DNA of 64,000 nucleotides from Minisyncoccia bacterium (GCA_050008535.1 JBEKML010000001.1:66246-130245), one strand, 5' to 3'; positions 1 to 17,134 are shown, counted from the first letter of the stretch. Made by a program: numbers and translations. The notes: a model not told the origin generated them from the letters alone.

Positions 1-59
1 TCGCCTTTTCGGTTTGGGAAAAGAATTTTCTCTTTGGCCTTTTTGTCGTCGTCGCCGAG

Positions 60-368
60 ATGCTTTTCATCGTGTGGGGGAACCGGGAGCCGCGCACGCT
101 TCGTTTCGCTTTGACGGAAAACGATATCGAAGTGGAAAAAGGGAAAGCGTACCCCCTCAAAGATTTTGAAAACGTGGGAATTGACCCTTTGGGCAACGGC
201 TGGGCCGAACTCGTTTTTACCTTTCGCGCGAAGCTCAAAATCCCTTTCAAAATACTGTTTCCGGAAGATCGCCTTACTGAATTGCGTAATCATCTGAAAA
301 CCGTACTAAAAGAAGTTCCCTACGAACCCACGCTCATTGATTCTATTGAAAAGCTGCTTCGGTTCTAG
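60..368 (+). CDS. hypothetical protein (102 aa)
   Basis: Intact ORF just upstream of the tRNA-Arg gene. No recognisable motif. Confidence 0.35.
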   Translation: MLFIVWGNREPRTLRFALTENDIEVEKGKAYPLKDFENVGIDPLGNGWAELVFTFRAKLKIPFKILFPEDRLTELRNHLKTVLKEVPYEPTLIDSIEKLLRF

Positions 369-1933: not shown

Positions 1934-2212
1934 TTTTGTGTTTTGAATTTGGTCTGTCATAGTCATATTCGTATAGAAATAGCTTACAATGACAACATAC
2001 GCTAACCCTTGGCACAAGCCAAGCTGGGGCTAAGTGGATATGTTAAAATCGTTGCCCGATACGTAATCTGCATGGAAACCACGACTAAAACTGGCCTATG
2101 CTTGGCATCATGCCAAACATCGAACATGAAAGCGGCCATCTGGTAGTACTGATTTCGCATCAGCTCAATTTCTTTGTCGCTTTTACTCTCGTATGATTTT
2201 GGCAATAATTTT

Positions 2213-2800
2213 CTACACGCTTTGATCGTTAGCATAATCTTGTTTCTTAAATCCACCCTTGGGCGGTCTGCCGGTTGCCAGCCAATGATCGGCTTTCTCG
2301 GTAGATTCCGATTTGTATTGGTCACGGGACAACGCCAGCCGGATTTCATATGGCACCATAAGCCAGCGATCCTCGACTGACAGTTGCTCGAGCTCCTCGG
2401 GGTTAACATGGATGGTCTCTTTCGGCTTGCCCTCGACCCGATCCAGTATCTCCCGGATGGCGGACATTTTGACCGAGTCGTTCGCGCTTCCCATTAAGGC
2501 AACGAGCATCTCGTTGGCCAGCCGAAAATTCTGCTCTCTGATTCTCGCTCCAGCTCGCCGGACAATGTTCATGGTTTCGATATGGATTTGATCCATCTCG
2601 TCCTCGTATATGCGGTAAGTTTCGTACAAAGTACCGGCTTCTTTGAACCAATCTTTAACGCTCTGCTCGGTGAATTTGGCTTTTCTACTTTTTGGGGCTT
2701 TGCGGTTTAGATCATCGGCAATACTTTCGTACGAATGGCCTTTATATTTCAGCTCTAATGCCCGTTTGTGGTATTCGGATAGATGTTTGATTTTGGGCAT
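2213..2800 (-). CDS. terminase small subunit-like protein (N-terminal HTH, C-terminal LDRVEGKPK motif)
   Basis: The N-terminus has a sigma-r4/HTH-like segment. The C-terminal ILDRVEGKPKE resembles the conserved LDRG(W/Y)GKP signature of Terminase_2-type small terminase subunits. No large terminase gene is nearby. Confidence 0.4.
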   Translation of the reverse strand: MPKIKHLSEYHKRALELKYKGHSYESIADDLNRKAPKSRKAKFTEQSVKDWFKEAGTLYETYRIYEDEMDQIHIETMNIVRRAGARIREQNFRLANEMLVALMGSANDSVKMSAIREILDRVEGKPKETIHVNPEELEQLSVEDRWLMVPYEIRLALSRDQYKSESTEKADHWLATGRPPKGGFKKQDYANDQSV

Positions 2801-2811
2801 AAAAAGTAGAG

Positions 2812-3024
2812 TTAAGTAGAACTTTTCGGACCTCGTTTTTCTTCGACAATGATCTGTTTCGGCTTTCCATAAACTCGGTCAAGAATGTAGATAGCCGCTT
2901 CCAGCTTCACCATGTCGTCCTTGCTCTTGAGAAGCGAGACCAAAACCTCGGCCGCTTTCACGACATTTTTATGGAACATATTTATGGCGGTTTCCATTTC
3001 AGGCGTCAGATGTTGTTTGTTCAT
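2812..3024 (-). CDS. terminase small subunit-like paralog fragment (70 aa)
   Basis: It shares the ILDRVYGKPKQ motif and flanking helices with the adjacent 195-aa protein. It may be a duplication or a degenerate copy. Confidence 0.3.
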   Translation of the reverse strand: MNKQHLTPEMETAINMFHKNVVKAAEVLVSLLKSKDDMVKLEAAIYILDRVYGKPKQIIVEEKRGPKSST

Positions 3025-3036
3025 GTTTTTTATTGG

Positions 3037-3543
3037 TTAATCTTTATAAGGCGTCCTCACACTCATCCGATCCAGCAACTGCTCACGGGTATCCATCAGT
3101 GCATCGAATGATTCCTCGGATTTCTGCTCGGCATAGGCTCGTTTATCTTCGAGTTCGTCCAATGCTTTCTTTTTGCGCTGGAAGTCTTCGTAGGCTTTAA
3201 GGTCGGGACCGACAGCCCAACCACGATCCGGATGCTCTTTTTTTACATAGCGACGGGATGTTGCTTTTATCTCCAATAGATACTGCACAAGTCCGGCATC
3301 AGTGAGTCCTGTGATATCGTTGTAGACTCGTCTTGGATTTATGCTTTCGGGAAATTGGCGACTGCCCATCGTGAAAGCTCGCATGACTTCTTTCGGTTCG
3401 CCGTAAACCCAGAGAGGATACTTGAGCGGTGCGGTTTTTAACTGCTCGAGCATTACTTCAAAATCTTTAACGGTTTGCTTATCTTCCGGATTGCTTAGGT
3501 CGTATTCCGCTTTTATATTTTCTTTTGTCTCGGTGTATTTCAT
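3037..3543 (-). CDS. hypothetical protein (168 aa)
   Basis: Intact ORF. Its start overlaps the stop of the upstream gene by 4 nt (ATGA coupling). Confidence 0.5.
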   Translation of the reverse strand: MKYTETKENIKAEYDLSNPEDKQTVKDFEVMLEQLKTAPLKYPLWVYGEPKEVMRAFTMGSRQFPESINPRRVYNDITGLTDAGLVQYLLEIKATSRRYVKKEHPDRGWAVGPDLKAYEDFQRKKKALDELEDKRAYAEQKSEESFDALMDTREQLLDRMSVRTPYKD

Positions 3544-4331
3544 ACGATGAATTTAAATAACGTCTCCAGCGTGTATCGCTTGAGCCATCCTTGCTTTACG
3601 GCTTCTTGGATTTTCTTGAATCCTTGAATGATTTTTTCGTCACCAAATGGCTCTAAGTTTTTAGCTGTCCTCACGTTGCGTTTTATAAATGCCTCCCATT
3701 GGGCTTTGGTCTGGAGATCCGGCTCGATCGTATCCGCCCAGTTGCCGATGATCTGGATATGCCGGTGGTTGCTCTTTCCACACCAGTCCACGAATTCTTT
3801 GAGAGTCATGGGGACATCAGTTATCGGCGTTTCGGTTTCTTCTTTTTCTTTCTTCTTCAAGGGTTCTTCTTTGTGCCCAATGGTTGAACGCTTCGAGTTC
3901 ACCAGATGAACGCTTTCGTTCACTGGTTGAAGGCTTTGTGGCAAGCGTTCACCATTTGAACGCTTTGATTTTTCCTCGTAATGCCGGACATTGAGCGACC
4001 ACAAATCTACGATCCGGTATTCGACCGTCTGCTGGTTCGTGGCCCCGGTGGCTTTATAACCAACGACTTCTATCCAGCCACGCTCGACCAGCTTTTTCTG
4101 GTATTTAGCGACCGTATTCCTTGAGCAACCGAGTCGTCCGGCGATTTCCATTGCTGACATCCAGCAGGTGCCCTCCTCGCCAGCCACACGCTTCATGTAT
4201 AAATAAATGGCCTGCTCGTAAACCGTCGAATGGTTGACGATGTAGTTCGGGATGATCGTGAAGTATTTCCGGTCACCGCTCTTGTCTATGATTTTGAATG
4301 GGTCGTTACGCATAAAATTAGTCGTGTCCAT
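3540..4331 (-). CDS. winged-helix DNA-binding protein, possible replication initiator of the island
   Basis: The N-terminal ~90 aa (YEQAIYLYM...MSAMEIAGRLGCSRNTVAKYQKKLVERGWIEV) look like a wHTH of phage or plasmid replication-initiator type. The protein has a long basic/acidic linker. Confidence 0.4.
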   Translation of the reverse strand: MDTTNFMRNDPFKIIDKSGDRKYFTIIPNYIVNHSTVYEQAIYLYMKRVAGEEGTCWMSAMEIAGRLGCSRNTVAKYQKKLVERGWIEVVGYKATGATNQQTVEYRIVDLWSLNVRHYEEKSKRSNGERLPQSLQPVNESVHLVNSKRSTIGHKEEPLKKKEKEETETPITDVPMTLKEFVDWCGKSNHRHIQIIGNWADTIEPDLQTKAQWEAFIKRNVRTAKNLEPFGDEKIIQGFKKIQEAVKQGWLKRYTLETLFKFIV

Positions 4332-4632
4332 AAATTCTCACTTTGGCAAGTTTGAGTTGGTTGAAAAAATCTTGAGGTTCGACCACAAGTTCTCGCTTCC
4401 AGTATTTGCTTACCAAATCGTCTAATTGGTCGCTCCTCCGGAAAGCGAAGAAGACCTTGCGCGGATTTGCACGGTCGCAGACCTCGAGCGAGTCGGGCAT
4501 AAATAGCAAAAGAACCGCTACCAATGCTAAATCGGCGGTTGTATAAAATTCGGAATTGTCGCTTGTCATAGTCATACTGTTTCCTCGCATTTGTTCCGGG
4601 ACCTCGCCCAAAACAAAACATACTCCCAGCAT
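4318..4632 (-). CDS. hypothetical protein
   Basis: ORF with several candidate starts. It overlaps the downstream gene by 14 nt. Confidence 0.3.
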   Translation of the reverse strand: MLGVCFVLGEVPEQMRGNSMTMTSDNSEFYTTADLALVAVLLLFMPDSLEVCDRANPRKVFFAFRRSDQLDDLVSKYWKRELVVEPQDFFNQLKLAKVRIYGHD

Positions 4633-4675
4633 AGAGGAGTACGTTCATTCAATATTCAGTTCTGAATTTGGAAAG

Positions 4676-5212
4676 CTACGGCACAAATCGCCAACCCTCT
4701 TTTTTGTGATTAAGAATCACGTCTTTTCCGAAGCAGGGCTTGAGCAATCCGTGCAGTTCGCTCACGTATTTGGCGATGGTCGAGAATCTGGTTCTCTCAC
4801 GCCGTTCGGCCCGGATGATTTCCTCCCGTATTTCATCGCATAAGACCAGCTGGTTCGGCCGGGACATAAATATCCGGCATAGGTCGTTGAGCTGATCACG
4901 CATAGGGATCACTGATCCTCTGAAGCGGATCGTGCCGTCGGAATATGTCGCAAGGTCGCCGATTTCTATTTCAGGCTTTATTTTTTGAGTAGATAGACTG
5001 CATAGCACAGCCGTTGTTTTCTTTAATCTCAAATTACTAACCCGTCGATCACCATCTAGTTCGCTGACCTCCTGACGCAACATTTTTACCTCACAGATCA
5101 GCCGGTACAAAAGAACCCCGATTGGAATTTCGACAATCAAAAAGCGATAGGTTATTTCAATGCTTACTGCCGAATATTGCGCTGTCATTTTCATAGTCAT
5201 CTTTGCTAACAC
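4676..5212 (-). CDS. hypothetical protein (178 aa)
   Basis: Intact ORF in a lower-GC stretch. Confidence 0.4.
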   Translation of the reverse strand: MLAKMTMKMTAQYSAVSIEITYRFLIVEIPIGVLLYRLICEVKMLRQEVSELDGDRRVSNLRLKKTTAVLCSLSTQKIKPEIEIGDLATYSDGTIRFRGSVIPMRDQLNDLCRIFMSRPNQLVLCDEIREEIIRAERRERTRFSTIAKYVSELHGLLKPCFGKDVILNHKKEGWRFVP

Positions 5213-5377
5213 CTAAAACGAAACGAGCTCGTAACCCAACTATCAAATCGATAGTGGATTACGAGCTCGTGAGCAAGGAATGCCGTTCAGGTCGCCCCTT
5301 GAGGCGAAATTATTTAATTGTTGGATTTATTATAACACTTTTCAAAAATTCTCTTAAAAAATTCACTGTGTATAAAT

Positions 5378-6778
5378 TTACCGTCTTGGCTTTGAAAAAT
5401 TTCTGATTGCACCCTCCATAACACACTTCATGATCATTCCGTTGATGGGCTCGCTGTAACTCCGGCTACCTTCTGTAAGTTGCATATGGCCGATGTTCTC
5501 ATTCCAAACAAAATATTGTGTTTTCTCTCTGCCTTCTTTGTGCAAAGCAAGCCCGTCAGTAAAAGGGTCAACTTGCACAATTTTCCTAAGGTCGAGGTTG
5601 ATGGTTTTCATATTTCCCGAAAAGACAAAACGTTCATTGGTGATTGTAAGAATTCCTCGATCTATGTCCCGTATTTCTTGGTGGGACTCGCTTGTCGAAC
5701 CAAACCTACCCATTCTAAAATAGACACCTTTTGCGACGCGGAAGCTTGGACCGGCATATCCACCACTGCTTTTTCGAACAGCCCTGGGTTCTTTCAGCGT
5801 TACTCCGGGAAGAGCAAAAAGGAGTTCCTCGCCAGATTTCATAATAACGGGCGTATCGACTCCTTTGAAGCTAATCTTGATTGCACCGGCACTCAACTTT
5901 TCCAGCCACTGCTCTATATCAGCTTTTCTTTGTTTCTCGTCCGACATTCCGCCATTCCCGATATTGACCCATTCACGAGGAGATAGTGTTTGGCGAGAAT
6001 ACTCTTGCCAAACCTTATTGGATTGATCGTTAACTTTTACAAACTTATATCCGGTTTCGTTTTTCCTGAAAGTCGCACCGCATTTATCGCACATAATACC
6101 TTCACGAGAAAACAAGCCAAAGAATACCTTTTCTGTTTTTAATGACATTTCTCCAACGTGACATGCAACACATCTTTTTGCTTCTGATAAATCTTGGTCT
6201 TTAGATAAAGCTGGATTTATTTGTTTATTTTGAGCGATACTCGTTGGCTTGGCGGTAACTGTCACACCGGTCGGCTCAATGTCTGATTTTAATATATAGC
6301 TTAAATCGCTGTCAGAACGGATCACGCTTGCAAGCGCCTCTGCAAAATAAACCGGCGGTGTTGTGTATCCGTGAATCCAGAGTCCCTCGGGTTCATATTT
6401 TTCTTTTGCCAGCTTTAACTCCTCGAGCATTTCTTTATACTCCTGCTCTCCGAGTACGGCCTTCATTTTCTTGCCAAAAGAATTTCCCAAAACCTTGAAG
6501 TCAGCGTCTTTAACCTCTTTTGCTAATTCATCCGAGCATTCTTTCGTCCAGTACTTGGCGACTATTTTCGCTTCAGGCCAGTCAAAATAGTTTTCGGGCA
6601 TTCCCGAAAACGGATTTGGCATAGATATGTTTAAACTTACTTTTTCGTCACCATCCCCAAACTCGGTGGTTTCGTTAAAACCATCATCGAGAATTTGTGG
6701 GTGGAATTTTAGATTTTTTATGGATAAAGCCATACTCTTGTTACTGAATAGATGCCGTCCAATTACCATCGGCGTCAA
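5378..6778 (-). CDS. hypothetical Cys4 zinc-ribbon protein (466 aa)
   Basis: Long intact ORF with a CVACH...CDKC zinc-ribbon pair in the middle. It overlaps the upstream gene by 38 nt, which suggests co-transcription. Confidence 0.55.
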   Translation of the reverse strand: MTPMVIGRHLFSNKSMALSIKNLKFHPQILDDGFNETTEFGDGDEKVSLNISMPNPFSGMPENYFDWPEAKIVAKYWTKECSDELAKEVKDADFKVLGNSFGKKMKAVLGEQEYKEMLEELKLAKEKYEPEGLWIHGYTTPPVYFAEALASVIRSDSDLSYILKSDIEPTGVTVTAKPTSIAQNKQINPALSKDQDLSEAKRCVACHVGEMSLKTEKVFFGLFSREGIMCDKCGATFRKNETGYKFVKVNDQSNKVWQEYSRQTLSPREWVNIGNGGMSDEKQRKADIEQWLEKLSAGAIKISFKGVDTPVIMKSGEELLFALPGVTLKEPRAVRKSSGGYAGPSFRVAKGVYFRMGRFGSTSESHQEIRDIDRGILTITNERFVFSGNMKTINLDLRKIVQVDPFTDGLALHKEGREKTQYFVWNENIGHMQLTEGSRSYSEPINGMIMKCVMEGAIRNFSKPRR

Positions 6779-8135
6779 TATTCAGAAGATAGATTCCGCT
6801 GTCATCTATGCGTACAGCTTTTGAACCGTTGTACGATCCGATGACGTTAACGAGTCCCTCAACCGTATTGCCGTTCACATCAAGCAAGTGAACAATAAAA
6901 TTGCTACTGCCGTCATGCGTAAATGCAAATGTGTGAAGACCTTGGGGGAGGCTGAAGAACGAAGTTGCTTGAGGCCCCCTACCATTAAGGCTAGAAGGAG
7001 ACTGGGCGCTGGTCGGTCGGGGTTGGGTTATGGTTATCGTCCACGGACCGTCCGAATCAACGTCAAACAGATAACTGCCTGCGTTTGAAATGTGTTCGGC
7101 TTTCGAGCCGCTAAAGTTTCCTATTTCGTTAGCGAGGCCATCAACAGTGTTTCCGTTACTATCCAAGAGGTGCACAATAAAATTGCTTTGGCCGGTATTT
7201 TGCATCGTAAAAATCGATAATCCTTGATCCAAATTGAATCTCTGGCTTGCTTGCTGGCCGTTACCGGAAATTGTTATCGGTGCAGGTGCTGGCTTAATTA
7301 CTGACACTGAGTTACTGCATGATTGGTTAACTGATTGGCTACCCGACACAACGTTCACTTGAGCGTTTTTGGTGCCGGCGCTCGAGTAAGATTTTGTGAC
7401 AGATTGAGTATTGCCTGACAAGCTCTCCGATCCAGACCACGAGAAACTATAAGATCCTGTACCACCGGACACTTGTGCAGTCCAAACAGCTGTCTGTCCG
7501 GCAGTGAGAGACGTTTGCGAAACTGAGCAAGAAACCGACAGAGCCGGTGCTGAAGGTGTAGAAGGTTGTGTTGCTTGCTGAGACTGCGATTGATTTGCAC
7601 TCGTTGGTTTCGGTGTTGTTGCTTTTGGCGCAGGATTATTTTGCGTTACAGTGTCGCCTGTACCTTTTTCAATAACGCAAGCAGTCATGCTTGGAATCGT
7701 GATCTGGAAATGCGCTTGCGATTCGTATGTTTTCGAGCCGGTCAATTGGCCATAAGCCGTAACCACGTCATCATCGACAGCATCTGTATGTCCCTGATAT
7801 TCGACGTAAACGACGTCGCTCGAACTCCATCCATACGATTCTTTTGTCACGGCAAGGCGAGCAATGCCGTAGCCATTCGATTCCTGAATTTGCAGAACTT
7901 GGCCTGTGAATTTGGCTATCTTGCCATTAAATGACCCAGGGTCTTTATTGAGTTCCTTAAAATCAACTGCCATTGCCTGATTTTTAAGAGAGGCTATATC
8001 GCTACAAAGTGATGGCTGGTTATCAGATGCGAGCTGGGCAGGACTATTATTGCTTGAGTCACTGCTACTGATAATGACGATTAATATTATAAAAACAACG
8101 ATACCGCCCACGATCCATACTGTTTTATTTTTCAT
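6741..8135 (-). CDS. membrane-anchored exported protein with a DUF4352-like domain, a PKD-like Ser/Thr-rich segment and two internal ~55-aa repeats
   Basis: N-terminal TM anchor (IVGGIVVFIILIVII). The segment GGTGSYSFSWSGSESLSG is PKD-like. The tandem repeats begin FIVHLLDSNGNTVDGLANEIGNFSGSK and FIVHLLDVNGNTVEGLVNVIGSYNGSK. Confidence 0.6.
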   Translation of the reverse strand: MKNKTVWIVGGIVVFIILIVIISSSDSSNNSPAQLASDNQPSLCSDIASLKNQAMAVDFKELNKDPGSFNGKIAKFTGQVLQIQESNGYGIARLAVTKESYGWSSSDVVYVEYQGHTDAVDDDVVTAYGQLTGSKTYESQAHFQITIPSMTACVIEKGTGDTVTQNNPAPKATTPKPTSANQSQSQQATQPSTPSAPALSVSCSVSQTSLTAGQTAVWTAQVSGGTGSYSFSWSGSESLSGNTQSVTKSYSSAGTKNAQVNVVSGSQSVNQSCSNSVSVIKPAPAPITISGNGQQASQRFNLDQGLSIFTMQNTGQSNFIVHLLDSNGNTVDGLANEIGNFSGSKAEHISNAGSYLFDVDSDGPWTITITQPRPTSAQSPSSLNGRGPQATSFFSLPQGLHTFAFTHDGSSNFIVHLLDVNGNTVEGLVNVIGSYNGSKAVRIDDSGIYLLNIDADGNWTASIQ

Positions 8136-8138
8136 GGC

Positions 8139-8360
8139 CTACTTAATAAAATATTTGATATCTTTATTGTAAATTTTTGCAAAGGCTTGAAGCTCGACGA
8201 CATCGACCCTTTGCTGTCCCGACTCAACATTGGAAATGTGAGACTGCGGACGCTTTATTTTTTTCGCCACTTCCGCTTGCGTTAAACCTGCTTCCTCGCG
8301 AGCCTTTCGCAATTTCTCCACGAAATAGGCGTATTCCTTTGTTCTGATAGACCTAGTCAT
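8139..8360 (-). CDS. XRE-family (Cro/CI-type) HTH transcriptional regulator
   Basis: AGLTQAEVAKKIKRPQSHISNVESGQQRVDVVEL is a classic HTH_3 sequence. Its stop lies 3 nt upstream of the start of the downstream gene. Confidence 0.8.
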   Translation of the reverse strand: MTRSIRTKEYAYFVEKLRKAREEAGLTQAEVAKKIKRPQSHISNVESGQQRVDVVELQAFAKIYNKDIKYFIK

Positions 8361-8421
8361 ATAGTACTATGGTCTATCCAAACATTCAATATCCAAAGTT
8401 TGGATATTACAAAACGGCCAT

Positions 8422-8733
8422 TTACGGCACCAGTTTAAACTTTCGCATTTCCTCTGTTGCCATTTCCATGTCATCCAGCACTTTCTGGTAGATCGCCTTG
8501 GTTCTTGCTGATTTTGGATTATTCTCGGCAAATTTTATGTCGTCATCATCCACAAAGCCGGCCAGTGAGATATAAGCACCGGCCAAAAGTCTGATTCGTT
8601 CTTTGATCGCTTGTTTGATTTTAGCTTTAGGTTCCGGAAGCGAGGATAGCGGATTGAATGATCCGCGTTGGTGTGGCAATCGTACATTTTTTGCGTCCCG
8701 GAGGACGGCTTCGATGTCCTCGTTCATAGGCAA
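8422..8733 (-). CDS. hypothetical protein (103 aa), first gene of the XRE operon
   Basis: Intact ORF upstream of the XRE gene. A toxin-like role is possible but no motif supports it. Confidence 0.4.
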   Translation of the reverse strand: MPMNEDIEAVLRDAKNVRLPHQRGSFNPLSSLPEPKAKIKQAIKERIRLLAGAYISLAGFVDDDDIKFAENNPKSARTKAIYQKVLDDMEMATEEMRKFKLVP

Positions 8734-8888
8734 GCAACAACATATGCTTGCCCTCGGAACAAGTCCAGCGGTTTATAATCACTTCCTTAAGTTGGCCCCT
8801 TGACCTTGTTTTATTGTGGGTATAGTATGTATTTGTAAAGGGCGTATCACCCTTGTAAGGGAACATTAAATGTGCTAATAATAAACTT

Positions 8889-9119
8889 ATGGATAAAATC
8901 AATAAAAAAGAAACTCCTCGGGATAGATTTAAAAGACTGGCTACTCTCAGGACAAACGCTGTCTTAAAAAGGCTTAAGGTGCTGGGAAACTGCTCGAACC
9001 GACAGGCATACGAATATAGCGAAGATGAAGTGGATAAAATATTTTCGGAAGTCGAACGGAAATTGAAAGAGGTTAAGGCCAAATTCCACTTCCCTAAAAA
9101 TCGAGAGTTCCACTTATAA
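8889..9119 (+). CDS. small basic hypothetical protein (76 aa)
   Basis: It ends 14 nt before the start of the GHKL ATPase gene and is likely co-transcribed with it. Confidence 0.4.
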   Translation: MDKINKKETPRDRFKRLATLRTNAVLKRLKVLGNCSNRQAYEYSEDEVDKIFSEVERKLKEVKAKFHFPKNREFHL

Positions 9120-9133
9120 GCCCCTGAATAACA

Positions 9134-11665
9134 ATGAAAATGACTATGATAAATGACAAAAAATTGAATAAAGAGATCCTGCTCGCACTGCTCTCAGCGA
9201 CGTCGTCCGAAGAGATTTCTAATTTTATAAAGACAAATAAATTTTTTAATGCTGAGAATTGTTCGTGGAAGCCATACGGCGGACAAGAGACAAATGCCAA
9301 AAACGTAGAGGGGCAGATGAGAAGCTCGAGCAATGCGCTCGTAGAAAAAATAACGAATTCCACCGATGCGCTTTTAATGCGGAAGTGCTACGAAGTCGAG
9401 GGGCTGAAGCCGGAGAGCGGTAACTCCAAACTGCCTAAGACCTTATCAGAGGCGATCGCGAAATACTTCGGGACCGAGGAGGAGATAAACAAGAAACGTA
9501 GCGAATGGGCGAAGAAAAATCTGGTTTTACTGGCCGAGGGTGACAGGAAGAAACCGACGATTACGATCATTGATCGTGGAGAGGGGCAGTTCCCCAATAG
9601 AATTCAGGCGACGATTGTCGGACTGAGCGAGAGCATAAAAGAAAAAATAAATTTCGTTTTCGGTAAATACCATCAAGGCGGATCGGCCGCGATCCGTTTT
9701 TGCGGTAGCAAGGCGAACTGCTATCAGCTGGTCTTGTCGAGGAGGGCTGAAAGCATTGCCCAGAGGGAGGGTGAAACTAATGACTGGGGCTGGACGCTGG
9801 TGAGGCGCAATTTCAAGAACAGGATCACTTACTATGAATTTTGCACGGACATTAACGGCAACACTTTCTGCTTTGATTATGACAAGCCGTTAAAAATTCA
9901 AAACCTAGACATTGATTTCATCGATGGATGCCTTATCCGGTTATACGATTATTTCTTGGAAAATCCATCAAACATAACGTTCGGCTTTAATTCGCTGGCG
10001 TTCGATATCGACCAAAAACTCCAACGGTCACCGTTGCCTCTTTATCTCCAAGATAATCGAGGGTGGAAGGGTGATACCAAATATACGATCGCAGGCTTTT
10101 TACGAAGGGTGGAGGACAACAAAAATGTCATCAACGACGATATCACCCTGCAAGCAGGACTGGGAGAAATCGGAACGAGGAGTATTCGGTGTATCCGCCT
10201 CAAGCATATAAGCGATGTGGACGGCGTTAAGTCTTATAAGCAACAGAGGGACAAAATATTCTACGTCGAGAATGGATTAGCTCTCGGTTTTGAAACGGAA
10301 TCTTTTCTGAGGACAGACTGTCAGCTTCCGGCCCTTGCGCCATATCTGATCTGTTATGTTGATATGTCCGACATTCCAGTGGAGCTGGCGAATATATTCC
10401 ATGCCGGCCGGGAGGAATTCGCTCGGACGGATGACTATCATCTTTTGAAGGAACGCTTGCGAAAGTTTTTTGAAAATGAGATTTTTGAAAAGTGGGATAA
10501 GGAGTATCAGGAAAAGAGCTTGGCCAGTGCGAATGAGGACAATAAAGAGCTTGATAAGCTGATTGAGCGAGCCATTGTCGATGATCCGGAATTGAAGGAC
10601 TTGCTCGGCATTGGTGAAGAGATAAAGATACCGAAAGGCAAAGAAGAGGATAAAGAGCCTTACGTCGGAGAGGAAAATCCGAAAAAGTTTGAATACGTTG
10701 GGGAACAGCCCAAAGAAGTCGATAAGGGTTCCTATGCTCTTGTTTCCTTCCGGACCGAGGCGGAAGATAAGCTTTTGACCAGAAAGAAGAATCGCTACTA
10801 TATCGAATGGTCTAAAGGCTCGAAGGTCTTTGACGTGGTAATACGAGGGATGAATAAGGGCGTCATATCGCTTCGGGTTGATTGCCGGGAAAATGCGACA
10901 GTCGGAGACGAGGACAAGATAACTTTTACCTTGCTGGACTCCGAGAAAAATAAAAAGTTCGAAGAGAATATAACTTTCAAAGTAACCGAGACACCGCCTT
11001 ATATTGGCTCATATTTCCCGACCTATTTTGAACCGCAAAAGGACGTTCTGAAAATTTCTCCCAAGGCGACTAAAAAATTCACCTTTGCCACCGATGTCGC
11101 AAACGACTATTTCACGAGAGAGAAAGACGCCGGAGTCATTGAGTTCGGGGAACGGGATGATCTGCAATTAAAAAAGTTCAGATTGAATGATGGAATGTTG
11201 GAGGTGAGCTTCCACGCCACGACCGAAAAGCTGGGTAAGAAACCCGATATTAAAATTGCCATTAATGGGAGTATAGATCACCGTTTCGAGTTTGTTATTC
11301 CTTTGGAAATCGTACCGCCAGAGGAAAGCTCTAAACTGAATGAGCCCAAAAGGAACCCTGTCTACGAGAGGGACTGGCCGACTTATGGCTGGAGCGAGCA
11401 CGATGTGGCAAGCGTGGACTCTTCAAGGACGCAGGGACTGATAGTAAACCTCAACGTTGATTCCAAGCCGTTGAAAGAACTGAATAAGATGGTCGGCATC
11501 GACAAGATCGAAAGTGCAAAAAATAAATATCTCGCTGATACTTACATCTACTCTCTTTATCTGTATTTTGAATTGAAAAACGACCCCGATAAGGATCGTA
11601 TGCTAAGCTCTGCAATGCGCGCGATCGGAAAAGCACTGCCCGGTATGATCCGGAAGATTGTTTAG
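9134..11665 (+). CDS. GHKL/Bergerat-fold ATPase (MORC-like), 843 aa, with a large uncharacterised C-terminal region
   Basis: N-box ALVEKITNSTDALLMRK. G1 box TITIIDRGEGQ. G2 box FGKYHQGGSAAIRF. The remaining ~650 aa have no recognisable motifs. The stop TAG at 11663-11665 overlaps the stop of the convergent methyltransferase gene. Confidence 0.6.
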   Translation: MKMTMINDKKLNKEILLALLSATSSEEISNFIKTNKFFNAENCSWKPYGGQETNAKNVEGQMRSSSNALVEKITNSTDALLMRKCYEVEGLKPESGNSKLPKTLSEAIAKYFGTEEEINKKRSEWAKKNLVLLAEGDRKKPTITIIDRGEGQFPNRIQATIVGLSESIKEKINFVFGKYHQGGSAAIRFCGSKANCYQLVLSRRAESIAQREGETNDWGWTLVRRNFKNRITYYEFCTDINGNTFCFDYDKPLKIQNLDIDFIDGCLIRLYDYFLENPSNITFGFNSLAFDIDQKLQRSPLPLYLQDNRGWKGDTKYTIAGFLRRVEDNKNVINDDITLQAGLGEIGTRSIRCIRLKHISDVDGVKSYKQQRDKIFYVENGLALGFETESFLRTDCQLPALAPYLICYVDMSDIPVELANIFHAGREEFARTDDYHLLKERLRKFFENEIFEKWDKEYQEKSLASANEDNKELDKLIERAIVDDPELKDLLGIGEEIKIPKGKEEDKEPYVGEENPKKFEYVGEQPKEVDKGSYALVSFRTEAEDKLLTRKKNRYYIEWSKGSKVFDVVIRGMNKGVISLRVDCRENATVGDEDKITFTLLDSEKNKKFEENITFKVTETPPYIGSYFPTYFEPQKDVLKISPKATKKFTFATDVANDYFTREKDAGVIEFGERDDLQLKKFRLNDGMLEVSFHATTEKLGKKPDIKIAINGSIDHRFEFVIPLEIVPPEESSKLNEPKRNPVYERDWPTYGWSEHDVASVDSSRTQGLIVNLNVDSKPLKELNKMVGIDKIESAKNKYLADTYIYSLYLYFELKNDPDKDRMLSSAMRAIGKALPGMIRKIV

Positions 11666-12978
11666 ACTTTCTCCATTACCAGAACGTACTCGTACTCATA
11701 GGCCCTCGTTCTTGAAGGGTTAGCCATGCCTGTAAACTTACCGCTCTCGATATCGCGCCATGGGGTTATCATCTTATTCGGGATTTCTCGCTTGATGAAT
11801 TTCACTTCCTTAAATCCGGCTACCTGCATCTGTTCGGCCGCTACTTGAGCGTTTAGGATTTCTACTCCCCTGAGATTGGTGTTGCCGATAATCATGCAGG
11901 CCTTACCTCCAGTTTTAAGTATCCGGTGCATTTCGGCGAACACTTTTTTCATGTCTAAAAAGTAATTAGCGACATCTACAGCCAAAGGTCTTTCAATTTG
12001 GATCAGGGCGTTTACTATCTGTTCGGCACTCTCACTGTCAAAGTCGCCTGTTTTTTCGGCTTTCGAGCTCGTGCCGATAAAGTTGCGACGAAAATCTATA
12101 AAGCCCTTGCTGAAGTGATGCCATTTCTTGAAGTGCTTCGGATCATCGCCAAACCACAGTAGCGACAACTGGTGCAGATCGGCGTATTCATAAGATGTCA
12201 CATACGGAGGTGATGTTACGATAAGGTCAACGTCACCGTCCTTAATCGGCCATGCCTTTGTCGAGTCTCGGCGGTACATCGTGGCTGGCACTTTCAAGTA
12301 TCCGGATTGTTTTAATTCGTTATAAAATCGCTCATTCTTTTTTATCATCGAGTCGAGGTGTCGAAGGAATGACTCTTTGACCGGCGGAATTACCTTGTCT
12401 TTGTCTATCGTTGGTTTAATGCTTTTCATCAGCCACCGTGAGCAGTTTTTCAGGTTATGGGAAAATGCACACAGGAAAAATCGGCGGACGTTATGGTTCT
12501 CTATTTTTTTAATAGCAAAATAAATCCTGTCCAACTCCAAAACTGTCGACTCATCAAACCAGTAAGCAATACGAGGGTGATGTTCTCGTTGGACCGGCGA
12601 TGTGTTTTCGTAATGTTGTAAAAATTTCTCCCGGTAATTGACGAGGGATTTCGGCCTGATAGCCGTCGTCTTGGTTTGGGTGATCAGCTTTGCTACCGGA
12701 TTGATGTCAAAGCCGATGCTCTTGTGGCCTAAAAGCTTTGCCTCAACCAATGTCGTTCCACATCCTCCGAATGGATCACAAACTGTTTGGGTATTGTTGG
12801 GTGCGTAATCCTCGATCAGCTTTTTAACGATCTGCGGAATAAATTTTGCAGGGTAACGATGGTAGTCGTGGGTGAAAGCGGTCGTTTGCGATCTACCGGC
12901 ATCACGAAAAGACCAATCTTCACTGGGTTGGATGGTTCTAAACTGTTTTTGTATTGTAGTTGCGATAGCTTCCGGCAT
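11662..12978 (-). CDS. DNA methyltransferase, amino-MTase (N6-adenine or N4-cytosine)
   Basis: AdoMet motif I VCDPFGGCGTTLVEA near the N-terminus. Catalytic motif IV IVTSPPYVTSYEY after a ~150-aa putative target-recognition region. Total length 438 aa. Confidence 0.85.
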   Translation of the reverse strand: MPEAIATTIQKQFRTIQPSEDWSFRDAGRSQTTAFTHDYHRYPAKFIPQIVKKLIEDYAPNNTQTVCDPFGGCGTTLVEAKLLGHKSIGFDINPVAKLITQTKTTAIRPKSLVNYREKFLQHYENTSPVQREHHPRIAYWFDESTVLELDRIYFAIKKIENHNVRRFFLCAFSHNLKNCSRWLMKSIKPTIDKDKVIPPVKESFLRHLDSMIKKNERFYNELKQSGYLKVPATMYRRDSTKAWPIKDGDVDLIVTSPPYVTSYEYADLHQLSLLWFGDDPKHFKKWHHFSKGFIDFRRNFIGTSSKAEKTGDFDSESAEQIVNALIQIERPLAVDVANYFLDMKKVFAEMHRILKTGGKACMIIGNTNLRGVEILNAQVAAEQMQVAGFKEVKFIKREIPNKMITPWRDIESGKFTGMANPSRTRAYEYEYVLVMEKV

Positions 12979-13399
12979 ATGTTGTCACTGGTATTATACC
13001 GCTTTATAAGATTTCTATCAAAAAAATTTTGCACTTTTTGATATTCCGGGCAGTCATATTTGCTTAAGTTAAGCAAATCGTTTTAGGCTTTCAATTTTGG
13101 TCAAACCGGCTGGTCATGCTCGCGAATGGTGTCAATGGTGTACTCTGGCCACAAAGCTCGCTACAGGGGCAAACACGTGGCAGAAATCGGGGCGTTTAAT
13201 CGTGAGCTGATTCGGTCTGGAATAATCTCGATTTTTCTGATAAAATTCCAGTTGTAAAAGGTGGGTTCCATGTCTTTAGGCCAAAACGGTTGAAAAGTCT
13301 GGAATTATGCCCGCCTCCGGGAGGACGAGCTGTAAAAGGTCTTTAATCTCTCGGATATTACGGAGAATTGAGTTCCAATTCAATTCCCTCAAGGGCACA

Positions 13400-13465
13400 G
13401 GCAAAGAAAAAGGGTTTCAGATCGAGTACTAAGAAGGGCTCTCTCTGAAACCCTTTTTCTTTGCC
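13400..13465. repeat. hairpin repeat copy A (core in reverse orientation at 13424-13441)
   Basis: The 22-bp perfect inverted arms ggcaaagaaaaagggtttcaga/tctgaaaccctttttctttgcc flank tc-GAGTACTAAGAAGGGCTC-tc. Confidence 0.8.
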
Positions 13466-13669
13466 TTTTGGCACTCACGGGGAATTGAACGAGGGGGGAG
13501 GGGGCAGTCTGACCCCTCCGTGTAGGAGGGTCGCGCGCTTCGCGCGACAGTGCGCGCACCCTAGGTGTCGCAAGCGCAGGCCGGTCTTACCCGGCCGAGC
13601 AGTGAGATCCCTCGCAAAGCCAATAAGCTTAATGAGCGGGAAATAGGCGTGATTTGTTATAATAAAAAA

Positions 13670-13933
13670 ATGAAATCAAGAATCGGGTTGATCCTTGTCG
13701 TTTTATATATTTTGTTCGTAGGCTATCTTTGGTTTGCTGAATTGTCTTGCACTGGTTGGGGGTGTGGCTACTCGCTGATACTGGCGATAATGCCCTGGCC
13801 GCTTGTTCTGGAAGGCACAGCTCAGTTTTCAATCCCGTTATTTATTATTTTGTTTTTATTGAATGCCACTATTTTATATTTCATCGGACTGGGACTTTCT
13901 AAAATCTTCCGTCAAGACCGCGGAGTTTTGTAA
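13670..13933 (+). CDS. small membrane hypothetical protein
   Basis: The hydrophobic ORF is called from the internal ATG at 13670. The ORF track begins at a GTG at 13565. This call is weak. Confidence 0.25.
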   Translation: MKSRIGLILVVLYILFVGYLWFAELSCTGWGCGYSLILAIMPWPLVLEGTAQFSIPLFIILFLLNATILYFIGLGLSKIFRQDRGVL

Positions 13934-14031
13934 AGAATCTCAAAACGCTTCCGAAGAATGTTTGTGGGGTCTCACTCATAAAGGTCTGAGGCCTTGGAAG
14001 GGCGCAGCTTCATTGGTGGTATAATTAAACT

Positions 14032-14580
14032 ATGAAAAAAATAATGGTTAGCTTGCTGTTTTTGCTGCCAGCGGTCGTTTTTCTGCAGGGAGCTCGGGCG
14101 GCCAAAACAATGCCGTCGTCAACCTCCGGTGTTGTTTCTGATCAGAAGGCCGCGGCGACGGGAAGCGTGATCGTGGTTTCTCCTCGAATCACGTCATTTC
14201 TTGAAAATCTTGCAAAAACCAATCCGTCCCAATCGGTTCAAGTTATTATTGAAGTATCCAACGCGCAACGTCAGGACGTCCTCCAGCTTGCGGAGTCTCT
14301 TGGGGGTAAACTTACCACCGATAACCCCCTGTATAATAATCCTCGTTTGCCATTATTTATTACCATTCCGGCAGGCAAGCTTCTTGATCTTGTGGCCTCG
14401 AAATATGACTTCGCCATTTCCGAGAATGGAATTGGTTCCGTCGCACAGGCAACGTCTGCGGAAAATCAATACCAGACAACGCCAGAAAAGGGCTGGAGCG
14501 GAACCGCAGGAATCGCCTCCGCCGTTGGAGCGATTGTTTTGATTTATCTGATATATAGGGTTGCAAACAAAAAACGTTAA
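14032..14580 (+). CDS. exported protein with C-terminal TM anchor and basic tail
   Basis: Signal peptide MKKIMVSLLFLLPAVVFLQGARA. C-terminal GAIVLIYLIYRVANKKR. Confidence 0.55.
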   Translation: MKKIMVSLLFLLPAVVFLQGARAAKTMPSSTSGVVSDQKAAATGSVIVVSPRITSFLENLAKTNPSQSVQVIIEVSNAQRQDVLQLAESLGGKLTTDNPLYNNPRLPLFITIPAGKLLDLVASKYDFAISENGIGSVAQATSAENQYQTTPEKGWSGTAGIASAVGAIVLIYLIYRVANKKR

Positions 14581-14589
14581 GCGGCGCCG

Positions 14590-15348
14590 CTACTTTGCGC
14601 TCAATAAACCGTCGATCACCGACTGGAAATTTGCATACGGTTGGGCGCCCATAATTTGCCTCCCGTTGATGAAGAATACCGGGGTGGAATTTACTCCCGC
14701 AGCGGACGCGCTTGCCTTTTCCTGGGCGACCTGGCTCGCATATTTATTGGCATCAATACAAGTCGTGAATGCCGGAATGTCCAGGCCGAGCTGCTGGGCA
14801 AGTTTAAGGAAAAGCGTCCGATTCAAACTGCCGTCGTTTTCGCTGCCGCCCTTCTGTTCATCCTGAACTTTCGCCTGATATAAAGCACCGTGATAAGCCC
14901 ATGCTTGATTCTGATCCGCGGCGCACTCCGCTGCCTCTGTCGCAGCCGTTGATTCGGGGCCTAAGAACGGAAAGCTTCTGAAGACCATTTTCATCTTCCC
15001 AGAATCCACGTATTTCTTGATAAGAAGCGGCTGGGTTTGTGAAAAATACTGCACACAAAACGGACATTGGTAATCGCCGTACTCAATAAAGGTAATTGGA
15101 GCGTTGGCGTTCCCAAGAACGGCATCGCGCGGGCTTAAAGCCATGATGTTTACCGTACTTGTCGGAGCTGCAGCCTGCGGCTGCTGCGCGGCGGGCGAAG
15201 GCGTTACTGTTCCTCCTTTATAAAATACCGTGAAGAGGATCGACCCTGAGATAAGGACTGCGGCAACAAGGATGCTGATCGGCAAAAACCGAGATTCGAT
15301 TGGTTGGTGATTTTGTTCCATGCGTTCCATGATATCATGCCGACACAT
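14590..15348 (-). CDS. DsbA-like thiol:disulfide oxidoreductase (thioredoxin fold, membrane-anchored)
   Basis: N-terminal TM segment. CPFC active site within YGDYQCPFCVQY. The exact start codon is uncertain. Confidence 0.75.
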   Translation of the reverse strand: MCRHDIMERMEQNHQPIESRFLPISILVAAVLISGSILFTVFYKGGTVTPSPAAQQPQAAAPTSTVNIMALSPRDAVLGNANAPITFIEYGDYQCPFCVQYFSQTQPLLIKKYVDSGKMKMVFRSFPFLGPESTAATEAAECAADQNQAWAYHGALYQAKVQDEQKGGSENDGSLNRTLFLKLAQQLGLDIPAFTTCIDANKYASQVAQEKASASAAGVNSTPVFFINGRQIMGAQPYANFQSVIDGLLSAK

Positions 15349-15413
15349 TGCGTCAAACGATTTACGAGGATATTGAAAATGGGAAGAAGTGGCGTATAAT
15401 AGGAAGCGTTATC

Positions 15414-15485
15414 GCGGGTATCGTATAGCGGCTATTATGCGACCTTGCCAAGGTCGAGATACGGGTTCGACTCCCGTTACCCGCT
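15414..15485 (+). tRNA. tRNA-Gly (GCC)
   Basis: Acceptor stem gcgggta/tacccgc. Anticodon stem cgacc/ggtcg with loop ttGCCaa. T-arm acggg-TTCGACT-cccgt. Confidence 0.7.
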
Positions 15486-16075
15486 CAAAGATCAAACGAG
15501 CGTCCAATAGTTTTTCTCTTAAATGTTGCCCCTGGCTTTATTTTCAGAAACCCCAGATTTGCTTTTCTAGCACCTTTGTAATCGTTTCCGCCATCAGCAA
15601 TCACAATACAGTCTCCAAATTTCTTCTTTATTTTCCGAAACGGGATCCCCGTTCTTTTTGAAAACCGGCACTGATTTTTTGTTATCGAATTTTCTATATC
15701 AAAATACTTTCGTATGCCAAGTCTATCAAGTACATACTGGGTTTCTTTTTCTTGCCCACCAGTAGCATAAATAAATCGGCAGTTATTTTTATTCGCCTTA
15801 ATCCAATCAACAATGGGATATCGTTGTGGTTGTGGCAGTTTTTTCTCAAGCACGCTTTTCTCAAACGCCCGGTTATACCATCGCCAATATACCGCCTTGG
15901 TTAATTTCTGCCCGGTCGCTTTTGTAAAAATCATATAAGTATCCGAGATCCCAGACATCTTCAATCCTTCGAATCTTTTTTCATATCTCCTGTTTGTCAT
16001 GCGCAAAAGCACCGATTTTTCAATCGGCCACATGTTGGTGAGCGTTCCATCGATGTCGAATATAATTGATTTCAT
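15485..16075 (-). CDS. HAD-superfamily hydrolase
   Basis: Motif I FDIDGTLT at the N-terminus. The gene is AT-rich and abuts the 3' end of tRNA-Gly. Confidence 0.65.
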   Translation of the reverse strand: MKSIIFDIDGTLTNMWPIEKSVLLRMTNRRYEKRFEGLKMSGISDTYMIFTKATGQKLTKAVYWRWYNRAFEKSVLEKKLPQPQRYPIVDWIKANKNNCRFIYATGGQEKETQYVLDRLGIRKYFDIENSITKNQCRFSKRTGIPFRKIKKKFGDCIVIADGGNDYKGARKANLGFLKIKPGATFKRKTIGRSFDL

Positions 16076-16129
16076 TTTTATTGAATTGAGAGGCCCGCAC
16101 CGTAATAAGATACGGGCCTCGATTTGTAG

Positions 16130-17134
16130 TCACCAGCTTGGCATGAGCGGCCCATGTAGCGCACTGTCGTTTATGACCTCGGCGTCTTCCCGTTCCCATA
16201 GGACGTATCCAGTGACGGGGGTTGCCCCACACGAAAGGATGACCACTTGGCACGCTTTTTTGTCCAGCGTTGCCGGGTGAATCATTTGCTGTGCAATGAG
16301 GGAGTTTCGGTTGTAGCACTGGCGGGCGAATCGACCGCCCCGGACATCCCGTTGGTACAAAACACTTTTGCCGGCACGGAGATGATCAGCGCTGTACTTT
16401 TCCGCGAATTTCAGGACGGTGCCGCTGAAGTCGGACTTCATCCAATTCGCCACGTGTTCCCATGGTACTTCGGGTGCATACCAACAGAGCGGGGTGTTGA
16501 CGCACCGAGTACGGCCTCCTTTGATGTCCCACTCGGTGCTGCGGGAAAACTGCGCAAGCCGCATCTTGTTCTCGATTTCGTACCCATAGGCAGGAACGAT
16601 GTTGGGGAGTTCTTCTGGTCGATCCCATCCGTAGTAATACATCGGGTCTCGATCGTCTCGAGGCTCGCCCGGCAAAAAAGATTCGACTTTCTTGCCAAGA
16701 TTCCTCAACTCCTGAAGCGTTAAGAGGAACTCATCATAGTACGCGTTGTTTGAGCTTGGCAGGTGCCAGGCTTGCGGTAGTTTTTCCCCGATAAGTTCCC
16801 CGCCTACAGGAAACCCGCACGCGCGGCAAAGATTGAGCGCCGTGCCCCAGCCGTCCACAAAGCGGGCGTTTACCTCGAGGACGATAAGTCTGTCCATCGC
16901 CTCCGAGATGAAGGCATCGGTCCGAAGATATATCCCCGGTTCGCAGAATCCGTCTTTCCTGAAGCCGCAAAAGCTCAGAAACTCGCCGAGGAAAAATTCG
17001 AGGCCTCGCATAATTTCGCCGCTCATGATCACGCCCAGGCCGCCTACCTTGTATGGTCTCCCGCGGTAGAGCGATCGGGGCAATAGGTCACGGTTTAGGT
17101 TGAACTCACGCCAATACATCTGCTGATTCGGCAT
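16130..17134 (-). CDS. hypothetical enzyme, possibly ATP-grasp-like
   Basis: Called from the internal Met MPNQQMYW at 17134, which avoids overlap with the TrpR-like gene. The segment RLIVLEVNARF faintly resembles an ATP-grasp motif. Confidence 0.4.
   Translation of the reverse strand: MPNQQMYWREFNLNRDLLPRSLYRGRPYKVGGLGVIMSGEIMRGLEFFLGEFLSFCGFRKDGFCEPGIYLRTDAFISEAMDRLIVLEVNARFVDGWGTALNLCRACGFPVGGELIGEKLPQAWHLPSSNNAYYDEFLLTLQELRNLGKKVESFLPGEPRDDRDPMYYYGWDRPEELPNIVPAYGYEIENKMRLAQFSRSTEWDIKGGRTRCVNTPLCWYAPEVPWEHVANWMKSDFSGTVLKFAEKYSADHLRAGKSVLYQRDVRGGRFARQCYNRNSLIAQQMIHPATLDKKACQVVILSCGATPVTGYVLWEREDAEVINDSALHGPLMPSW

Follow-up and report, generated by a model that had tools for sequence, protein, structure and literature searches.

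What acts as the restricting partner when the gene that converges on a DNA methyltransferase (MTase) gene encodes an ATPase? This question is raised by a locus of Minisyncoccia bacterium (GCA_050008535.1 JBEKML010000001.1:66246-130245), contained in a stretch of 64,000 nucleotides which was analysed at its full length and is termed the window below. In this locus, a gene for a small basic protein (76 aa) precedes a gene for an 843-aa protein of the GHKL ATPase type, which runs tail-to-tail into the gene for a 438-aa amino-MTase (Table 1). The large protein sits where a restriction enzyme normally would, and the locus is a candidate for a new kind of restriction-modification (R-M)-like defence. 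The reading favoured here, with moderate confidence, is that the three genes constitute a self-contained mobile R-M-like defence cassette, the restriction side of which would be an ATP-gated clamp. All functional claims on the cassette are computational.

Linkage of the three genes and the restriction slot

The three open reading frames (ORFs) and the overlapping stop codons reported in an earlier note on this DNA were found exactly as described: the TAG of the GHKL gene (11663-11665, plus strand) and the TAA of the MTase gene (11664-11662, minus strand) have two nucleotides in common. The resulting tail-to-tail 4-nt overlap of the two genes recurs in 33 of 56 homologous loci, which indicates that it is conserved and does not result from chance.

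Several lines of evidence demonstrate that the genes travel together. The close-tier loci were collected with either the GHKL protein (L001-L028) or the MTase (L089-L114, L133 and L145) as the starting point, and the full trio was present in all loci with enough contig (26/26 from the GHKL protein and 26/26 from close MTase relatives). Five loci from metagenomic look-ups and those of 20 species-representative genomes (34-85% identity) have the small gene directly upstream of the GHKL gene, as have nearly all close-tier loci, where the gap is mostly -4 to +8 nt. The same MTase family adjoins the GHKL gene wherever the contig of a GHKL-start locus reaches far enough. The exceptions among these loci are two contigs ending inside the GHKL gene, one locus in which the small gene was undetected, and the fragmented locus L027, in which the GHKL and MTase genes (5998-9898) are both in fragments, as if decayed together. 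From the MTase side, relatives of at least 72% identity with contig room all have the small-GHKL pair; the solitary MTases in related genomes that the earlier note had regarded as potential counter-evidence were never seen at this level of identity. The co-inheritance which the note had supposed for the ATPase and the MTase thus holds, and the small gene recurs with them as part of one unit.

The usual arrangement is the convergent layout of the window, and the MTase gene is upstream and co-directional in four loci (e.g., L002, L104 and L110). When positions 7000-15000 of the window were compared by blastn with all fetched loci, similarity began at ~8833-8922 and ended at ~12915-13031 in most loci, and the conserved stretch takes in promoter-like regions on both sides. 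The strong sigma-70-like match directly upstream of the MTase start codon falls within this stretch; the two candidates upstream of the small gene are consensus matches only, in a region whose total count of such matches is not above shuffled expectation (Table 1). Flanking genes vary by locus, and include dnaG/rpoD, dnaK, argS and a serine recombinase gene. The hosts comprise many Patescibacteria lineages, Clostridiales, Nitrospina, Omnitrophota, Gamma- and Deltaproteobacteria, Terrimicrobiaceae and a Heimdallarchaeota metagenome-assembled genome (MAG). The three genes are therefore one inherited, horizontally mobile cassette.

Within this unit, the GHKL gene diverges far more than its two companions. 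In cassettes like that of L006, identity to the window is 78% for the MTase and 74% for the small protein, whereas it is only 26-45% in every domain of the GHKL protein, which is without the second immunoglobulin (Ig)-like domain. On account of this difference, the GHKL gene is evolving much faster or is swapped between cassettes, both of which are expected of a conflict-facing effector.

Table 1. Positions of the cassette, its genes, protein domains and candidate promoters in the window
Feature	Position (nt)	Strand	Basis or remark
Conserved three-gene cassette, unit recurring in other genomes (~4.2 kb)	8833-13030 (about)		blastn similarity limits
Sigma-70-like promoter match, TTGACC-17-TAGTAT	8800-8828	+	9/12; upstream of small gene
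Sigma-70-like promoter match, TTGTAA-18-AATAAT	8853-8882	+	9/12; upstream of small gene
Gene for 76-aa small basic protein	8889-9119	+	ORF
Gene for 843-aa GHKL-S5-Ig protein, whole	9134-11665	+	ORF
N-terminal helical segment, residues 1-60	9134-9313	+	Family signature W45/G49/N54/Q61
GHKL (Bergerat-fold) ATP-binding domain, residues ~61-240	9314-9853	+	Foldseek and motifs
S5-fold/transducer domain, residues ~241-425	9854-10408	+	Same Foldseek alignments
Acidic helical linker, residues 426-507 (pI 4.7)	10409-10654	+	AF2 model
Two Ig-like beta-sandwich domains, residues 508-615 and 616-735	10655-11338	+	Model and Foldseek
Small alpha/beta unit and long helical hairpin, residues 736-843	11339-11662	+	Secondary structure from models
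Gene for 438-aa MTase, alpha-class amino-MTase, N6_N4 family	11662-12978	-	ORF
MTase motif IV, SPPY (residue 256)	12202-12213	-	
MTase motif I, DPFGGCG (residue 68)	12751-12777	-	
Strong sigma-70-like promoter match, TTGATA-17-TATAAT	12993-13021	-	11/12; directly upstream of MTase start codon

The MTase matches Pfam N6_N4_Mtase (6e-21), the C-terminal part of the profile aligning to residues 32-97, and PADLOC MTase_II (3.6e-55). Both DPFGGCG and SPPY, which had been picked out in the earlier note, are invariant among six orthologues; the succession of S-adenosylmethionine (AdoMet) motif, target recognition domain (TRD) and catalytic motif is of the alpha type, and the position of motif I before motif IV, an order which had been likened to that of alpha-class or circularly permuted enzymes, is what alpha-class topology ordinarily gives and in itself nothing unusual. 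The SPPY motif presumably denotes N4-cytosine specificity, and the protein is probably an N4-cytosine-specific amino-MTase of the alpha class, as judged from its motifs. An analysis of palindrome depletion in the window yielded nothing informative about the target beyond a general depletion of CTAG.

Partners of related MTases are informative about the place that the small-GHKL pair takes. In 18 loci, an MTase 45-48% identical to that of the window is followed, within ~5 nt, by a 222-aa Type II endonuclease of the Pfam RE_BsaWI family (1.3e-32), together with a second small MTase. In one other locus (L144:4962-10347), three proteins come after a related MTase (51% identity): an unknown one of 359 aa, a HerA (DUF87) ATPase and a GHKL protein of 432 aa and of the standard HATPase_c_3 kind. 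Here, MTases of this family have another set of partners in which a GHKL protein is included. Because recognised restriction modules replace the small-GHKL pair within one MTase lineage, the pair is placed in the restriction slot, and this displacement is the strongest argument that it is functionally equivalent to a restriction component. The CCGG-type specificity of the BsaWI-linked systems was not carried over to the MTase of the window, as the TRD-region identity to the BsaWI-linked MTases is only 35%.

The large ATPase, its small partner and their distant relatives

An AlphaFold2 (AF2) model of the 843-aa protein was built from 46 homologues and has a mean predicted local distance difference test (pLDDT) score of 84.5. 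In a Foldseek search against PDB, the model matched Hsp90, GRP94 and TRAP1 (N-terminal and middle domains) and GyrB/ParE ATPase fragments (E ~2e-8, probability 1.0). These alignments span 400-480 positions, including the region of the 43-kDa GyrB fragment, with identities of 9-14%.

Residue conservation, scored across 148 superfamily members, is consistent with these matches. Motif I, E71-KIT-N75-ST-D78 (E-x3-N-x2-D, with the catalytic Glu and the Mg-binding Asn), is 97-100% conserved, and motif II, D147-R-G-E-G151 (DxGxG, with the adenine-binding Asp), is 99-100% conserved. The ATP lid reads G177-KYHQ-G182-G183, in which G177 and G182 are 100% conserved; the E/N and DxGxG boxes listed in the earlier note are thus present, but the third box is not a literal GxxGxG. 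Motif I is preceded by a signature, WxPYGGxENNAGxVEGQ, the W45, G49, N54 and Q61 residues of which are 93-100% conserved and which, to our knowledge, has no counterpart in other GHKL families. In the transducer domain, the basic residue R309 is 93% conserved and is a candidate phosphate-sensing basic finger.

Sequence searches of the 843-aa protein against Pfam, NCBIfam, PADLOC and, by phmmer, PDB gave no match (E 0.1 to 10). It has 178 homologues, and the 120 listed are all 'hypothetical' with no precomputed Pfam domain among them. When the family profile was compared by hhalign with one standard HATPase_c_3 protein, the lid motif alone was aligned (probability 13%). Distant homologues, with 25-30% identity, score 25-28 bits against Pfam HATPase_c_3, just above the cut-off of 25, and the family is therefore tied, weakly, to the MutL/MORC-type branch by sequence. 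As no sequence library recognises the domain at E < 0.1, the assignment rests on structure and motifs: as modelled, it combines the ATP-binding domain of a GHKL ATPase with an S5/transducer domain, and its ATP-site residues are intact. This agrees with the GHKL assignment of the earlier note and adds the transducer domain to it.

The C-terminal ~650 aa, which had been thought to have no recognisable domain, thus begin with this transducer domain and continue with a linker and two Ig-like domains. The linker forms helices at residues 433-490 and has a disordered end (pLDDT < 50 at residues 494-507). A separate model of residues 508-843 (pLDDT 91.2), made to unmask a hidden nuclease, matched only tandem Ig-like folds in Foldseek (filamin rod, LAR Ig1-2, intimin and S-layer SbsC). 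Only close relatives have the second Ig domain, an insertion that is missing in a 760-aa subfamily and in most of the superfamily. In the C-terminal unit, P738, W748, N774 and D776 are conserved among the superfamily members, and the hairpin domain is a probable dimerisation element, a reading prompted by analogy with Hsp90 and MutL.

A nuclease hidden in this half, which the earlier note had considered, was sought, and the Ig-like domains and the probable dimerisation domain were found instead. The polar residues of the C-terminal half that are conserved superfamily-wide are only T541, D/E542, R550, N774 and D776, and no conserved cluster of two to three acidic residues with Lys or His was found there. 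The MutL endonuclease motif DQHA(X)2E(X)4E is absent from the 843-aa protein even in relaxed form, HxH is absent, and conserved ExxxH is absent, a single non-conserved ExxxH being present at residue 690. A regular-expression search of the whole protein for the MORC S5 signature GhXhhpXXRhl gave no match. Folds, residue conservation and motif searches thus bear out, for the cassette, the lack of a nuclease motif that had been remarked on before. The possibility that the large protein is a canonical MutL or Hsp90 paralog was likewise addressed: the fold is shared, but the protein has no MutL motif, matches no MutL family in NCBIfam or Pfam, and is neither a MutL nor an Hsp90.

The small protein is helical and indeed basic (pI 9.9), and its gene lies just before that of the ATPase, as had been reported. 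It forms a helical hairpin with invariant residues F14, K15, R16, R21, L32, G33, N34, Y41, F52, K63, F66, F74 and L76, and without conserved acidic or His residues except E8. No match was found in Pfam, NCBIfam, PADLOC or, by phmmer, PDB, including to helix-turn-helix (HTH)/Xre families. In 26 of 60 distant-tier loci, where the MTase family of the window is absent, the small gene is also found upstream of the GHKL relative. That it accompanies the GHKL gene even without the MTase would make the small protein a subunit of the ATPase, or its regulator, rather than a C-protein of the classical kind.

The wider superfamily is large. A profile search yielded 2106 cluster representatives (50% identity) at E <= 1e-3 and 772 at E <= 1e-30, mostly of 750-850 aa, and relatives occur at 428 places in a scan of one genome per species. 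The distant relatives (L029-L088, L171 and L172) have 770-830 aa and 25-30% identity. Within ~4.5 kb of the GHKL relatives at the 60 distant-tier loci, PAPS-reductase/DndC-like proteins (11), a large protein of no family (11) and DUF4007 (3) were found. The Pfam tally of nearest neighbours includes DndB/DGQHR (5), YhcG PD-(D/E)xK nuclease (5, starting 3-4 nt downstream), Fic (4), DUF262/GmrSD_N (3), HNH (3), GIY-YIG (2), cysteine desulfurase (2) and other MTases. In RefSeq, a GHKL relative on a Hymenobacter plasmid converges on SIR2, DUF262, a PAPS-reductase-family gene and a large hypothetical gene, and one on Ensifer pC has genes for an ATP-binding protein and a PAPS-reductase-family protein as neighbours; the plasmid relatives are all annotated 'hypothetical protein'. 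These contexts are of the Ssp/Dnd-like phosphorothioation and defence-island kind, and they are heterogeneous, the numbers being raw neighbour counts. The small-GHKL module appears to occur with different DNA-modification modules, often with nucleases alongside in the distant relatives, and may be a general partner of DNA-modification systems.

Two uncharacterised giant-virus proteins among the BFVD entries, A0A1V0SGC9 (Hokovirus, 702 aa) and A0A5K0UA26 (Yasminevirus, 759 aa), align with the GHKL model over nearly their full length in Foldseek (E 6e-9 and 5e-7, respectively; template modelling score ~0.3), and these proteins may have a similar overall architecture.

Proposed mechanism and competing explanations

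In the proposed mechanism, the MTase, expressed from its own promoter, would mark host DNA, probably with N4-methylcytosine, and the small and 843-aa proteins, co-transcribed from the opposite side, would form the restriction side. The large protein would dimerise through its C-terminal helical domain and work as an ATP-gated clamp, mechanically of the MutL/GyrB/Hsp90/MORC type. Its N-terminal gate would shut upon ATP binding, the clamp would engage DNA that lacks the mark, and the small protein would be an obligate subunit or regulator of the clamp. The clamp might then block or compact invading DNA, or hand it to a nuclease encoded elsewhere; these outcomes are favoured over intrinsic cleavage because no nuclease is detectable in the cassette. 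The defence role, the unmethylated-DNA target, dimerisation and the effector step are inferred. In a narrower and more speculative version, which seems rather unlikely, restriction would be nuclease-free: the clamp and its small partner would topologically entrap or compact unmarked DNA, silencing or stalling it without cutting, and the module would be reused as a read-out of other modifications such as phosphorothioation. If this is true, bacteria would have an equivalent of MORC-type silencing that takes a minimal set of three genes.

Strict linkage and mobility would equally be expected of a methylation-guarded abortive-infection or addiction system, in which the GHKL and small proteins would act as a toxin-like effector (through chromosome compaction or replication arrest) and the MTase would silence it, serving self-retention or the killing of infected cells. 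The missing nuclease, the joint decay of the GHKL and MTase genes in L027, and the Fic/DOC, VapBC and SIR2 genes near distant relatives are compatible with such a system; however, true restriction modules fill the partner slot in sister MTase clades, which favours a restriction-equivalent role, and the addiction model is considered unlikely. The same slot could be explained if the GHKL protein, perhaps with the small protein, cut DNA as an ATP-dependent Type II-like endonuclease through an active site without known fold signature. GHKL proteins can carry endonuclease activity, as MutL does; the protein takes the R position, convergent with M, and its gene is preceded by a small one, as in C-R operons, and the invariant polar positions N54, Q61, N380, D410, R426, T541, D/E542, R550, N774 and D776 are unexplained. 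Yet the C-terminal model matches Ig-like folds only, the DQHA(X)2E(X)4E and HxH motifs and an acidic cluster with Lys or His in the C-terminal half are missing, and the small protein offers no conserved acidic or His residue except E8, all of which make a cryptic nuclease unlikely as well.

A role outside defence is the least credible of the explanations. An orphan regulatory MTase might work with a DNA-structuring GHKL protein in epigenetic control or nucleoid organisation, or methylation might need the GHKL protein as a cofactor; the cassette has no detectable nuclease and is often situated among housekeeping genes in Patescibacteria, and the part that MORCs play in eukaryotes is in the silencing of chromatin and not in cleavage (PMC2292703, PMC4268658). 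Several points weigh against the R-M-like clamp cassette as well. No nuclease family, fold or conserved catalytic constellation was found in the GHKL protein or the small protein, and thus no means of DNA destruction has been identified in the cassette. The link by sequence to canonical GHKL families is weak, as seen from the lack of a Pfam match for the window protein and the hhalign result. PADLOC has no model for the family. Among viral contigs only one distant relative was found, and among phage records none, and a conflict with phages is thus not directly indicated. The loci are mostly on MAG contigs, the neighbourhood genes are simple longest-ORF calls, and the neighbour-joining tree carries no support values.

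If the R-M-like cassette does defend its hosts, a common module, especially in the tiny-genome Patescibacteria, would be missed by current defence-finding tools. Its ATPase family is large and unannotated in Pfam, NCBIfam and PADLOC. With three genes in 4.2 kb, it would be a tractable system for asking how a GHKL/MORC-type ATPase reads a DNA modification and then acts on DNA, a question that stands also for eukaryotic MORCs and nuclease-poor systems such as BREX. The distant pairs beside phosphorothioation-type genes hint at a general modification-reading module.

Genomic setting and comparison with known systems

The window is ordinary bacterial chromosome (ClpB, FtsK, PNPase, GyrA and SHMT) of ~55% GC, the first ~16 kb of which have 42-48% GC and carry a serine recombinase. 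The cassette sits in this stretch, in agreement with its earlier placement in a mobile island. Only short, chance-like two-copy matches were found when direct repeats bounding the island were sought in positions 1-17000. The recombinase ORF (365-2017, minus strand) overlaps at its 3' end a tRNA-Arg call by ARAGORN (385-459, plus strand), and a tRNA-Gly is located at 15414-15486, within the low-GC stretch (1-16000).

Upstream of the cassette and divergent from it are a gene for a 73-aa HTH_3 protein (8139-8360, minus strand), which in PADLOC resembles capH, R-M controller proteins and RmrA N-termini, and a 103-aa ORF without family match that follows it (8422-8733, minus strand). The HTH_3 gene was rejected as a controller of the cassette because it is not beside the cassette in other loci; blastn of the fetched loci revealed no counterparts of either gene adjoining the cassette elsewhere. 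Two further ORFs of ~465 aa (5378-6778 and 6741-8135, both minus strand) have no significant family match; the latter has an N-terminal hydrophobic segment, and its C-terminal halves are internally repeated. Just past the cassette, an inverted repeat of ~21 bp (GGCAAAGAAAAAGGGTTTCAGA / TCTGAAACCCTTTTTCTTTGCC), spotted by eye, lies at ~13399-13466 in an ORF-free stretch. In the high-GC chromosomal part, a 1262-aa ORF (20498-24286, minus strand) has no NCBIfam match at E <= 1e-10.

A literature search (GHKL, paraMORC, phosphorothioate, DUF4007, anti-phage methyltransferase) found no description of this architecture. The PADLOC run on the locus which the earlier note had recommended matched the MTase, and no system model in PADLOC-DB v2 (BREX, DISARM, MADS, Dnd/Ssp partners and PDC candidates) matched the large or the small protein. 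Ten distant homologues likewise had no meaningful PADLOC match, one chance-level match to PD-T7-4 being obtained for L041 (E 0.0097).

The gene order resembles that of classical Type II C-R operons, in that a small gene is located upstream of, and co-oriented with, a large gene that converges on a separately promoted MTase gene. In the PvuII-type layout, the C-R operon is convergent with M. Further likenesses to Type II R-M systems are the compactness and mobility of the cassette, the AdoMet and catalytic motifs of its MTase, and the pairing of sister MTases with a BsaWI-family endonuclease. Unlike in those systems, the large protein is an ATPase without recognisable nuclease and the small protein has no HTH/Xre match. 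According to the model, the large protein shares with the Hsp90, GyrB-ParE and MutL clamps an N-terminal ATP gate, a middle domain and a probable C-terminal dimerisation element; it differs from them in having no Toprim partner, MutL endonuclease motif, chaperone context or PDB sequence match. In BREX, methylation marks self and the restricting step has been hard to pin down, as would be the case for the cassette, in which, however, PADLOC detects no BREX protein family. The GHKL-Shedu protein VcSduA illustrates the control of an anti-phage effector by a GHKL ATPase domain, the effector in that protein being a DUF4263 PD-(D/E)xK nuclease fused to the GHKL domain (PMC12137116); the window protein has no such nuclease.

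The closest comparison is with the GHKL+S5 proteins that were predicted from gene neighbourhoods to be R-M components (Iyer, Abhiman & Aravind 2008, PMC2292703). As in MORC and paraMORC proteins, a GHKL domain with intact ATP motifs is followed by an S5 fold and a family-specific C-terminal extension, and methylase linkage and a sporadic, laterally transferred distribution are likewise shared (PMC2292703). Unlike MORC, the window protein lacks the S5 signature and does not match Pfam HATPase_c_3, and the hallmarks of paraMORC2 (ExxxH), paraMORC3 (RE-fold), paraMORC4 (TIR) and paraMORC5 (HxH) were not found in it; as paraMORC1 has no published simple signature, the protein is set apart from MORC and paraMORC2-5 only. 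Whereas ~70% of MORC neighbourhoods include a helicase (PMC2292703), the cassette has neither a superfamily 2 (SF2) helicase nor a nuclease gene. Neither the Ig-like domains nor the obligate 76-aa partner features in the description of MORC and paraMORC (PMC2292703). The designation 'MORC-like' in the earlier note is thus apt for the looser paraMORC-type functional class, but not for the MORC family itself, and the cassette fits best as a variant of the GHKL-containing (paraMORC-type) R-M-like systems that have been predicted.

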